The translations under genes and the position numbers were made by a program. Below the pieces are notes generated by a model, which worked only from the letters and a program-made list of their open reading frames with translations, did no database searches and was not told where the DNA came from. Shown here piece after piece: positions 50,507 to 53,892 of a DNA stretch of 59,481 bases (its first letter is position 1; each line of letters starts with the position of its first letter). The DNA is from an uncultured Mycoplasma sp. Its GTDB lineage: Bacteria; Bacillota_I; Bacilli_A; RF39; UBA660. The stretch is from NCBI GenBank assembly GCA_947646115.1, contig CANSFH010000004.1, positions 1 to 59,481 on the forward strand. Direction: 5' to 3'.

Positions 50507-50821
50507 ATATTATCCTACTTTCTTACAAAAACTTCCTATTATTAGTTTTTGTTCTTACTAAATAATTATACCATGGATAATATGCGATGTAAATTAAAGG
50601 GAATATTTTTTACACATATTCTTTAGGGAAAATAGACATATTTGCTAATTTATCAGTTACATTTTATTATGTTATATTTAATTTGGAAGATTCAATATCT
50701 TGGATATCTACCTAAACTAAATGGAGTCTTGATAAAGCGAAAACTAAAACTTTTTACATAAAAGTTTAGTTTTTAATAAAAAGCATTTATTTTAAGGCGT
50801 ATATGTAAAAAGTTAGAATAG

Positions 50822-50859
50822 TTTTACTACTAATTTACTACTTTTAAAAATGAAAATAT
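50822..50859. repeat. 38-bp direct repeat, copy 1 (DR2/arm-site-like)
   Basis: ttttactactaatttactacttttaaaaatgaaaatat; 35/38 identical to copy 2. Confidence 0.9.
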
Positions 50860-50891
50860 GTTAAAATATTTAAAGTGATTGAGGTGATAAT

Positions 50892-51446
50892 ATGATTTAC
50901 GTTACTAGACATGGTCAAACAAATTGGAATGTGCAAAAGAGGGTAATGGGAAGATGTGATGAGCCTTTAAATAATAATGGCATAAATCAAGCAATAGAAA
51001 CTAAAAATAATTTATTAAATAAAGATATAGATTTAATTATTTGTTCTCCATTACTTAGGGCAAAGCAGACCGCAAATATTATAAATGAAGGCAGAAATAT
51101 TCCAATAGTTTATGATGATAGAATTATTGAGAGAGATTTTGGCGAATTTGAAGGAATGCAAACAAACGATTTTGATTTTAATGGTTATTGGAATTATTAC
51201 AAAAATGAACAATACCGAAAAGCAGAAAATATACAATTATTTTTTGATAGAGTATATAGTTTTTTAGATTATATTATAAAAAACTATAGTGATAAAAACG
51301 TCCTGATTGTAGCACATGGCGGCGTAAGTATCCCTGTTGCTTGTTATTTTAACGAAAATATCCCAACAGGTTCATTAATTGAAGCAGGATTAGTGCTTGG
51401 AAACTGTCAAGTTTTATCTTATTCTTGTTGTTCAAAAAATAAATAA
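50892..51446 (+). CDS. Histidine phosphatase (phosphoglycerate mutase family)
   Basis: RHGQT, SPLLRA, ERDFGEFEG, VAHGG. Confidence 0.93.
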   Translation: MIYVTRHGQTNWNVQKRVMGRCDEPLNNNGINQAIETKNNLLNKDIDLIICSPLLRAKQTANIINEGRNIPIVYDDRIIERDFGEFEGMQTNDFDFNGYWNYYKNEQYRKAENIQLFFDRVYSFLDYIIKNYSDKNVLIVAHGGVSIPVACYFNENIPTGSLIEAGLVLGNCQVLSYSCCSKNK

Positions 51447-51498
51447 TAAGAAATTTAATAGTGATTTTTAAATTTACTATTTTAATAATTTAACATTT

Positions 51499-51624
51499 TG
51501 CTACATGCTTCATGCTACATAATAAGGGTAATACTATCCTTATTATGGCGAAGACTTAAGTGGCTACGCCACTAGTCTCGCCTATAAGACTATATCCAGA
51601 TACTATGACATGCATAGTATTTTT
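51499..51624. other. Triple-hairpin structured non-coding segment
   Basis: Stems at 51518-51547, 51547-51582 and 51600-51620; tandem tgctacat at 51499 and 51513. Confidence 0.75.
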
Positions 51625-51657
51625 AATATTTAAAATTAATAATTTAAAAAAGATCAA

Positions 51658-51695
51658 TTTTACTACTAATTTACTACTTTTGAAAGCGAAAATAT
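51658..51695. repeat. 38-bp direct repeat, copy 2
   Basis: ttttactactaatttactacttttgaaagcgaaaatat; 836 bp from copy 1. Confidence 0.9.
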
Positions 51696-51954
51696 AATAA
51701 ATTATAAAAATATATGTGATTATCTACCAAAAATCAAAATGTTGTAAACACTTATAAATAAAGGTTATGACGACATTTAAGAACTTATAAAAGCTTACCT
51801 AAAAAGTGCTATATTTTTTTTTATAAAAGTTTTTTAAGTCAATCTATATTTTATTCCTACTTACTTTTTAGTAATAGCCATTAAAAATGACATCTAATTT
51901 TGTAAGAAATTAAATATCTTCTATAGGTAGACAATACATATAAGATATTTACTA

Positions 51955-52975: not shown

Positions 52976-53892
52976 CTACTTTCTATTACTAATTTCTTCT
53001 TCTATATATCTTATCATAATTTTATTATCTTTAGTAATTATTTTTTTACCTAATTCTTTTTCTAAATTTGCTTTGGTATTTTTAGCTATTTTGCCTCCCC
53101 GTTTAGCAATTTTTTTATTTTCAGCTAAACCAAAAGGTTTATGACATCGCGCTAGTTCTCTAGTTGCCACTTCACCAATGTCTGTTAATAATATTTCTAA
53201 ATCTGACATATTATCTCGTAAAGATTCTTTTCTAATTCCTTTAAAATCCTTGTATTCATTAGCATTCATACCTGACCACTCATGATATATTTCATTGGTT
53301 AATATAGCATACTCGTAATCTTTATTTATACCATTTTCTTTCCAAGTATCAGTTAACTTATTACGATTAATAATTGCTTTTATTCGAGCCTCAATCCAAC
53401 TATTATCACAACCTTTTCTTTGATAATACTTTATTGCTCTTTTAATAGCAAGTTCAGGCAAAAGTATTAATAATATTAATTTTATCAATAATACTTTATT
53501 GCTCTTTTAATAGCAAGTTCAGGGTCAAATACTTCATCAATTCTTTCACTCCCAAGAGTTGCTAACCACATTTTAAATGGTTCAGCATTAGGACTAGGAA
53601 TAGACTCTATTAATCTAAAAATGTCTTTGGTACATAGAGCATCTCGCATGCGCATTTTTCCGTCAGGTGCTAACATTTTCAACTGACTACAATTTGTAGT
53701 CACTTCACTTCCTTCTTTAATTAATCTTAACTTTAATACAGACCAATATTTACGAGGATTAACACTATTTGTTAAAACAGCAACAACATCAACTACACTA
53801 AAATAGTAATCTCCTTTCTCACTATCCCAGACACTTCTAATTTCATTTCCTTCAAAAAGATTTATAATTGTTTCTAACTTGTTTTCTTGCAA
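52976..53892 (-). pseudogene. Bro-N-family (antirepressor-like) gene split into two ORFs by a 65-bp insertion
   Basis: ORF 53485-53892 ends PELAIKRAIKYY and ORF 52976-53488 restarts with the same peptide. Removing 65 bp restores a 283-aa ORF (FSVVDVV, PSPNAEPFKMWLA, SLRDNM). Confidence 0.85.
53423..53523. repeat. Exact 36-bp direct repeat (53423-53458, 53488-53523) with a 29-bp filler
   Basis: ataatactttattgctcttttaatagcaagttcagg occurs twice. Confidence 0.93.

Follow-up and report, generated by a model that had tools for sequence, protein, structure and literature searches.

A 1.06-kb single-gene cassette of a mouse-gut bacterium with Tn916/Tn1549-type ends and a candidate origin for a circovirus-like Rep

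The DNA analysed here is a contig of 59,481 nucleotides (nt) from an uncultured Mycoplasma sp. (assembly GCA_947646115.1, contig CANSFH010000004.1, positions 1 to 59,481; hereafter the window), and we find that its segment at about 50761-51819 is very probably a non-autonomous mobile cassette from a gut-Bacilli integrative and mobilizable element (IME) that has a Tn916/Tn1549-type integrase (Int) and excisionase (Xis) together with a circovirus-like replication protein (Rep), the cassette having lost all mobility genes and retained the sites needed in cis, namely attL, the putative Rep origin and attR. This 1.06-kb cassette, whose host is a mouse-gut bacterium, carries a single gene for a histidine phosphatase. 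Our reading draws on the homology and layout of its ends, an empty site, its presence at multiple chromosomal sites, a family of sibling cassettes, and a relative of about 7.3 kb (locus L130) that encodes Int, Xis and Rep and has near-identical ends and origin. A preliminary description of this stretch had proposed a cassette resembling MITEs (miniature transposable elements with inverted repeats) and mobilised in trans by Tn916-family integrases; our comparisons support that proposal, with the trans step as something we infer and with a likely helper other than Tn916 itself.

The exact 20-mer TTTACTACTAATTTACTACT is found twice in the window, at 50823-50842 and at 51659-51678, both on the + strand, and no third copy was seen there at up to three mismatches (0.08 expected by chance). 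Around it the direct repeat reaches 60 nt at 82% identity between copy 1 and copy 2, and, as the preliminary description had observed, it brackets the histidine phosphatase gene and a cluster of hairpins. Each copy holds two tandem DR2-type repeats, those on the left being 11 nt each (TTTACTACTAA TTTACTACT), and the two pairs share one orientation, so that both arms of the element have the direct tandem arrangement of AATTTACTACT-like repeats that marks the Tn916 family. The N-terminal domain of Tn916 Int reportedly binds the DR2 repeat. The existence of an arm-binding domain in Int and its nuclear magnetic resonance structure are confirmed in the literature (PMC8138268). As a yardstick for Tn916 we used a 20-kb stretch with tet(M) from an annotated Clostridium tetani plasmid record. 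The same 20-mer lies in the int-distal end of this canonical tet(M) Tn916, which bears out its earlier identification as the DR2 arm site, and in a scan of one genome per species streptococci, Veillonella, Anaerococcus and others, by the dozen, have it in the identical, int-distal context. The int-proximal end of Tn916 carries TTTACTACTTATTTACCACT and in local alignment is colinear with the right arm of the window element over about 175 nt (CTTCTGACAGC in Tn916 against CTTTTGAAAGC in the window, GTGAAGTATCTTCC against GTGATTATCTACC, and AATAAGGCTTTACGAGCATTTAAGAAAATATAAAAAG against AATAAAGGTTATGACGACATTTAAGAACTTATAAAAG), just as had been proposed for the Tn916 right end. Moreover, when 51640-51830 was compared by blastn with 7.3 Gb of plasmids, positions 51658-51828 matched the DNA directly 3' of the int stop codon in Tn1549-type elements at about 70% identity (170 nt or so, E 4e-9); these were vanB Tn1549 copies and a related Agathobacter element. 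Each arm of Tn1549 has a DR2 pair, in one orientation; some 70 nt separate it from the terminus at the int-distal end and some 140 nt at the int-proximal end. The arm sites of the window element keep distances like those of Tn916 and Tn1549, with 62 nt to the left terminus and 141 nt to the right one, and the right pair has the same position relative to its terminus in L130 as well. The right arm and terminus (51679-51819, + strand, ending ...GACATTTAAGAACTTATAAAAGCTTACCTAAAAAGTGCTATATTTTTT) are 86% identical to the int-proximal end of L130 and 76-87% identical in nearly all sibling cassettes, and the left terminus with its spacer to the arm sites, the core-type end of attL (50761-50822, + strand, beginning AAAGTTTAGTTTTTAAT...), matches the left end of L130 at 87% identity and is conserved across 18 members of the family. 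As a candidate for the AT-rich, imperfect terminal inverted repeats of the Tn916 family, left AAAAGTTTAG and the reverse complement of the right terminus, AAAAATATAG, agree at 8/10 positions, a likeness that is weak by itself in DNA of 27% G+C.

Four metagenome contigs (L005, L007, L009 and L010) supply empty-site alleles, in which the element is missing and the flanking LD-carboxypeptidase-like gene directly adjoins that for asparagine synthase, and whose flanks are 99.77-99.94% identical to those of the window over 3 kb on each side. The empty target is CTTTT-N6-AAAG, reading AAAACTTTT-TATAAT-AAAGTTTTTTAAG in L005, L009 and L010 and AAAACTTTT-TATGAA-AAAGTTTTTAAAG in L007, and the occupied allele reads AAAACTTTT-TACATA-AAAGTTTAGTTTTTAAT... 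at the left junction and ...GCTATATTTTTT-TTTATA-AAAGTTTTTTAAG at the right. Alignment of the two states puts the left crossover (coupling) hexamer TACATA at 50755-50760, between the target T-run CTTTT (50750-50754) and the left terminus, and the right hexamer TTTATA at 51820-51825, followed by the A-rich half of the target, AAAGTTTTTT. The occupied allele has gained the 1059-nt element plus one extra 6-nt hexamer, as predicted for Tn916-type integration, and the T-rich/N6/A-rich target with a crossover hexamer and no target duplication is seen at the insertions of the siblings also. This agrees with the consensus TTTT-N6-AAAA and the 5-7-nt heteroduplex crossover described for Tn1549 (PMC5871717). 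Of the limits originally given to the element, 50730-51818, the right one was off by a single nucleotide (51819) and the left one lay about 30 nt too far out, the alignment placing the start at about 50761. In the flanks, only 0.06-0.2% of positions distinguish empty from occupied alleles, and the presence/absence polymorphism is therefore recent; the phosphatase gene is missing from the empty alleles, and it is therefore cargo rather than a resident gene. By comparison the hexamer is hypervariable, differing at 2-4 positions between alleles (TATAAT, TATGAA, TACATA and TTTATA are all found at this site), which is the pattern that coupling sequences produce and may reflect repeated visits of family members. 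These alleles also bear on the alternative offered in the preliminary description, in which two tandem right-end remnants of Tn916-like elements flank a resident gene. Beyond the DR2 pair the two copies do remain alike, at 82%, for about another 30 nt, but upstream of copy 1 there is a distinct, family-conserved left terminus like that of L130, this terminus and the right one coincide exactly with the breakpoints of the empty site, and the supposed resident gene is absent where the element is absent, all of which makes tandem remnants extremely improbable. A scan of metagenomes with the left flank gave no matches.

The cargo gene (50892-51446, + strand) encodes a 184-amino-acid (aa) histidine phosphatase of branch 1, CobC/PhoE-like (PF00300 His_Phos_1, E 9e-40), which scores below every NCBIfam equivalog cut-off. 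It is the only plausible gene of the element, the other short open reading frames (ORFs) overlapping either it or the non-coding arm and being taken as chance frames, and it is the sole + strand gene within a 16-kb run of - strand genes; what lies between the repeat copies is this ORF and a 214-nt spacer that folds much better than shuffled sequences (z = -5.7). In agreement with the preliminary description, tblastn with the Int, Xis, Rep and P-loop proteins of Tn1549 and L130 detected no int, xis, rep or tra gene in the element or in the whole window. Matches in the window to Int residues 400-429 arise because the int ORF of L130 reads through arm DNA; they are the arm DNA itself, and there is no int remnant upstream of the right DR2 pair. 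A ribosome-binding site, GAGGTG, can be read at 50881-50886 (+), and TGTTAAAAT at 50859-50867 (+) is a candidate TG-extended -10 for the gene. This -10 had been attributed to copy 1 of the repeat, an attribution that fails: conservation between members with different cargo ends at ...ACTACTTT, and the candidate -10 reads TGTTATAAT or TGATAAAAT in other phosphatase cassettes and is not conserved with other cargo, so that it belongs to the cargo-specific segment and not to the family-conserved arm.

The same phosphatase cassette occurs, with the window, at five unrelated chromosomal sites, with about 85-93% nucleotide identity: between nadE and prs (L136-L140, protein 92% identical), between the rplK operon and nusG (L141, 90%), after a peptidase gene (L142, its protein identical to that of L141), and at a fifth site (L153, 91.6% nucleotide identity over 1080 nt). 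The promoter segment, the origin module and the arms do not change between the five sites, T-run/N6/A-run sequence bounds the cassette at each, and at two of the five the cargo protein is identical. Among 1277 homologues of the phosphatase the closest are in cassettes and the more distant ones are chromosomal; those at 77% and 74% identity lack arms, being either normal genes of the chromosome or copies that have decayed completely.

Same ends with other cargo were found in quantity. Starting from at least 120 loci that hold TTTACTACTAATTTACTACT, we found among the matches listed at least 17 in which two direct DR2 pairs, 590-1370 nt apart, bracket a single ORF; about eight further cassettes are cut by locus ends, and a metagenome scan added nine more loci. 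The hosts, at least 25 species-level genomes, are metagenome-assembled genomes (MAGs) from the gut of mouse, rabbit and human that bear the label uncultured Bacilli, Tenericutes, Mollicutes or Mycoplasma. Most of the complete cassettes have the hairpin module after the ORF, in a diverged form in L023 and L066, and L026 is without it. The cargo includes Nudix proteins, three kinds of HD phosphohydrolase, a protein like methylthioadenosine/S-adenosylhomocysteine (MTA/SAH) nucleosidase, DUF3201, small membrane proteins and several proteins without a family; PADLOC gave no convincing defence-system match among ten cargo proteins, and a defence or anti-defence theme is therefore unsupported. Left terminus, DR2 pairs, hairpin module and right arm are conserved across the family, and conservation ends exactly at the cargo boundaries. 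All members have one internal junction in common, a fusion of the region around the rep ribosome-binding site to a point about 8 nt ahead of the right DR2 pair, which speaks for a single founding deletion with later spread and exchange of the cargo. The left junctions of L021, L026, L056 and L066 show insertion exactly on the T-run after the terminator-like hairpin of the upstream gene. The family also includes four solo forms of about 235 bp (L052:2960-3191, L044:7047-7299, L121:1605-1830 and L083:4150-4395), each with left end, one DR2 pair and right arm at a T-run/N6/A-run site, which are true MITE-like members, and an array at L157:990-3320 (left end, DR2, 304-aa ORF, origin module, DR2, 195-aa ORF, origin module, DR2, right arm) that looks as if two cassettes had recombined via their DR2 pairs. 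In two mouse-gut runs the DR2 and hairpin segments stand out by a 10- to 60-fold rise in contig depth, which fits many copies in the community. Contig joints that appear to "go back" proved to be right DR2 pairs of siblings mapping onto the left pair, and were rejected as circles.

Solo forms, the array and the mosaic arms of L141 and L142 show clearly that recombination occurs between family members, and one might ask whether homologous recombination, or transformation, has also spread the cassette through homology of the flanks without any site-specific recombination. The five phosphatase sites and the sibling sites have no common flanking homology, and all show the same precise termini beside T-run/N6/A-run targets; insertion at new sites by this route is contradicted and we regard the explanation as a whole as very improbable, while for swapping of cargo inside the family it is plausible.

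The complete relative L130 comes from a mouse-gut MAG that also holds the cassettes L022 and L034 and the solo forms L044 and L052. Its first gene, which encodes an HD-domain cargo and shares 97% identity with the cargo of L026, is followed by genes for a sigma-70-like regulator and a 96-aa protein. Beyond these come an RF03070 motif (57 bits), about 130-175 nt upstream of rep and on the opposite strand; a 329-aa Rep (PF02407), whose best solved relative is the porcine circovirus 2 (PCV2) Rep 7lar (E 5e-11, with nuclease and helicase domains aligned); a 396-aa P-loop protein, possibly FtsK/TcpA-like; a Tn916-type Xis (PF09035); and an Int with the Tn916 DNA-binding domain PF02920 (E 1e-32) and PF00589. 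The homology of all the small cassettes to this parent stops at the rep ribosome-binding site. By its gene content L130 is of a known kind, an integrated plasmid of the pCRESS group (CRESS, circular Rep-encoding single-stranded), equivalent to an IME with Rel_PF02407, and the helper of the cassettes is likely a small IME with Tn916-type Int and Xis and a circovirus-like Rep, rather than Tn916 itself. The cassette is accordingly better described as a derivative of an IME lineage with Tn916-type integrase and CRESS-type Rep than as a Tn916 derivative. At 480-600 of L130 (- strand) its int ORF reads on through the right DR2 pair and arm, which adds about 30 residues (…QQKQFYYEFTTFESENIRNYKN…) relative to the Int of Tn1549.

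The hairpin cluster behind the phosphatase gene was identified as Rfam RF03070 ssNA-helicase (51499-51547, - strand; 47.3 bits against a gathering score of 41.5, E 1e-7), and the motif is above the gathering score in the window and 11 relatives. RF03070 is said to have been published as an RNA candidate of unknown role near helicase genes, whereas here it stands with no helicase gene nearby. After the cargo, family conservation restarts at three 7-nt direct repeats (GCTACAT GCTTCAT GCTACAT on the + strand; 51500-51520, assigned to the - strand), which are part of the match and, from family alignments, are candidate Rep-binding iterons. Next to them lies a hairpin (51518-51547, - strand) with a perfect 10-bp stem and the loop ATAGTATTAC, which contains TAGTATTAC; the layout on the minus strand is CATAATAAGG-ATAGTATTAC-CCTTATTATG, then TAGCATGAAGCATGTAGCA. 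The loop core GTAATACTA (+ strand) is invariant in 25/25 copies, and in L130 the stem is preserved through three compensatory pair changes. TAGTATTAC is the nonanucleotide that circovirus Rep nicks (mechanism: PMC8780604), given in the Pfam text as AGTATTAC. A CRESS-type origin is a stem-loop with (T/n)AGTATTAC in its loop, beside iterons, to which a Rep with HUH and superfamily 3 helicase domains binds; the window has these sequence features, and in L130 a PCV2-like Rep is encoded beside the motif. The data thus point to the cluster as the DNA origin of a circovirus-like Rep and part of the mobile machinery, and by analogy with circovirus Rep the minus strand would be nicked between 51530 and 51529. 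A second, G+C-rich and bulged hairpin (GGCGAAGACTT..AGTGGC-TAC-GCCACT..AGTCTCGCC; 51547-51582), conserved among 25 copies with compensatory pairs, could be a single-strand origin or a site for Rep or a host factor. The third (ATACTATG-N5-CATAGTAT, then a T-run; 51600-51624, + strand), just downstream of which the homology to the parent ends, is likely a terminator of the cargo gene and/or a remnant of the rep upstream region. A search for the origin in viral contigs gave no matches.

That the module works instead as RNA, either as a small RNA or by terminating or stabilising the cargo transcript at its 3' end, with a cassette that needs only Int and Xis and spreads otherwise, is a thought suggested by its listing in Rfam as an RNA candidate, by the resemblance of the third hairpin and T-run to a terminator, and by RNA-labelled runs that hold the hairpin region at high contig depth, where DNA carry-over is possible. 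We consider it unlikely, if conceivable: the motif strand runs antisense to the cargo gene as well as, in L130, to the adjacent rep, its loop is the exact nonanucleotide nicked by circovirus-type Reps and is placed, in the complete element, upstream of a Rep of this kind, 7-nt iterons flank it, and its orientation stays constant whatever the cargo, including in L022 where the cargo ORF is on the opposite strand.

If the cassette is mobile in the way proposed, movement would begin in a cell where an autonomous relative is also present. The N-terminal domain of Int would dock on the DR2 pairs, and its core and catalytic domains would make staggered cuts about 6 nt apart at both termini, with Xis directing excision to give a circle of about 1.07 kb. 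Rep, acting in trans, would then nick the origin loop of the circle, leading to rolling-circle replication and/or to single-stranded DNA passed to a conjugation pore, and Int would reinsert the circle at TTTT-N6-AAAA sites, often the T-runs of terminators, which would be harmless intergenic places. What the host would gain is the one cargo gene, in this case for a histidine phosphatase and equipped with a putative promoter of its own. Each step in which a protein acts, the mobilisation in trans, the nicking of the hairpin by Rep and the route from cell to cell among them, we infer from sequence comparison.

Several observations weigh against this account. The likeness of the left end to Tn916 and Tn1549 proper consists of the DR2 pair and its position, with no further colinear similarity, and blastn of the left end against the plasmids found the DR2 core only. 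Relatives of L130 int and rep are present in the runs that hold the cassette, but only at low depth and 85-93% identity, which is co-occurrence in a community and not in one cell. No excised circle, circle junction or excision footprint was seen among the contigs, which are assembler products and not raw reads. Neither of the empty hexamers (TATAAT, TATGAA) equals either of the occupied ones (TACATA, TTTATA), so that one-step Tn916 bookkeeping, and with it the exact history of the site, is not reconstructable from these alleles. Finally, the five occupied alleles (window, L006/L011, L012, L013 and L014) share identical junctions, which fits a single old insertion and means that the window site was probably hit once, and the element is 99.9-100% identical among them. 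This uniformity, together with the lack of a circle junction in assembled contigs, is what one would expect of an inert relic, that is a decayed and immobile remnant whose polymorphism stems from one old inherited insertion. Such a relic is improbable in our view, since the same cassette occupies five unrelated sites, with an identical cargo protein at two of them, and more than 25 siblings have common internal breakpoints, a pattern that requires spread after the deletion and not independent decay in place. Moreover, its sites in cis are intact (exact DR2 pairs, invariant origin loop, termini 86-87% identical to those of the complete relative), and the closeness of empty and occupied flanks speaks for a recent polymorphism.

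A non-autonomous cassette of this type resembles several known systems. With Tn916 and Tn1549 (the IntTn916 subgroup of tyrosine recombinases) it shares direct tandem DR2 sites in both arms at similar distances from the termini, an int-proximal arm that is colinear over about 170 nt, and insertion at TTTT-N6-AAAA with a crossover hexamer of about 6 nt and no true target duplication. It differs in having no Int, Xis, relaxase or conjugation genes of its own, unlike the integrative and conjugative elements (ICEs) of the Tn916 family, in being 1.06 kb rather than 18-34 kb long, in its left end, where the DR2 pair and its position are the whole of the likeness, and in its putative origin, a circovirus-type Rep hairpin in place of their MobT or MOBP origin of transfer (oriT). 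Integrated pCRESS plasmids are described as combining Rep, an FtsK-like ATPase, a tyrosine integrase and a Tn916-like Xis by Kazlauskas et al. 2019 (PMC6668415), and Coluzzi et al. 2017 (PMC5357655) describe IMEs with Rel_PF02407 Rep-type "relaxases" and tyrosine integrases. L130 fits here, with its Viral_Rep-type Rep (HUH and superfamily 3 helicase domains), P-loop protein, Tn916-like Xis and tyrosine integrase in a compact block, and it has the integrase of its own that is expected of an IME; the window element has the ends and origin of L130 but encodes none of these proteins, integrase included. Most of the published elements insert at specific sites (tRNA genes, rpsI), whereas the lineage seen here occupies many AT-rich sites, and the available text of the two papers describes neither an origin motif nor non-autonomous (gene-less) derivatives. 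Our literature search found no natural Tn916-type miniature or non-autonomous elements, the closest concepts being the cis-mobilizable elements and the Tn3-derived miniature elements taken up below.

Cis-mobilizable elements (CIMEs) are remnants of ICEs or IMEs that keep attL and attR (PMC5704250). The window element likewise keeps both att sites, has lost the recombination and transfer genes, and would rely on the recombinase of a related element; but CIMEs have been described as sitting at one specific attB and moving in cis, by accretion with an incoming ICE, whereas the family described here stands alone at many sites with a uniform single-gene architecture and a retained, putative replication/transfer origin. 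MITEs and the Tn3-derived inverted-repeat miniature elements (TIMEs; PMC4133298) are likewise short, multicopy, non-autonomous derivatives, mobilised in trans, in which only the ends of the autonomous element remain, and here the 235-bp solo forms come closest. Those elements rely on DDE transposases and make target duplications, in contrast to a family that has tyrosine-recombinase ends with arm sites and mostly a gene plus putative origin. Integron cassettes offer a third parallel, with one promoter-poor or self-promoted ORF and one conserved hairpin site per unit, varied cargo and occasional arrays (compare L157), yet the family hairpin appears to be a Rep origin, its recombination sites are Tn916-type ends, and it inserts all over the chromosome. 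Neither an integron integrase nor attI or attC was found in the window or in L130: the window has no tyrosine-recombinase match, and the only integrase of L130 is of the Tn916 type. What is new here is a uniform, unexpectedly large family and an explanation for its putative origin motif, in elements that are otherwise of known kinds.

Tn916/Tn1549 integrases are major movers of antibiotic-resistance DNA, and the family suggests that their recombination sites can naturally be carried by tiny cassettes that encode nothing for their own movement; if so, DNA between such ends could travel wherever a helper integrase is present. The family also ties this integrase system to a circovirus-like Rep and offers a testable identity for an orphan Rfam motif, namely that the TAGTATTAC hairpin plus iterons is an origin. 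It further points to a network in which uncultured, little-known gut Bacilli exchange genes for small hydrolases, and such cassettes presently escape element finders keyed on integrase or relaxase genes. A bolder idea, which we put forward tentatively and think somewhat more doubtful than probable, is that the family forms an integron-like system in which units of DR2 pair, one gene and Rep origin would be shuffled between IME backbones, chromosomal terminator sites and arrays by a Tn916-type recombinase and a circovirus-like Rep, maintaining a common and exchangeable pool of small nucleotide/phosphate "housecleaning" enzymes for gut Bacilli of reduced genome, with RF03070 as the DNA origin of bacterial CRESS-like Reps.

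As to the surroundings of the element, its base composition is the same as theirs. A nearby Bro-N domain gene (52976-53892, - strand) is split in the window into ORFs of 135 and 170 aa, both containing ELAIKRAIKYY, which suggests a short internal duplication or a frameshift; among the empty alleles it is a single intact 283-aa ORF in L010 and is divided into 135 and 161 aa in L005 and L009.

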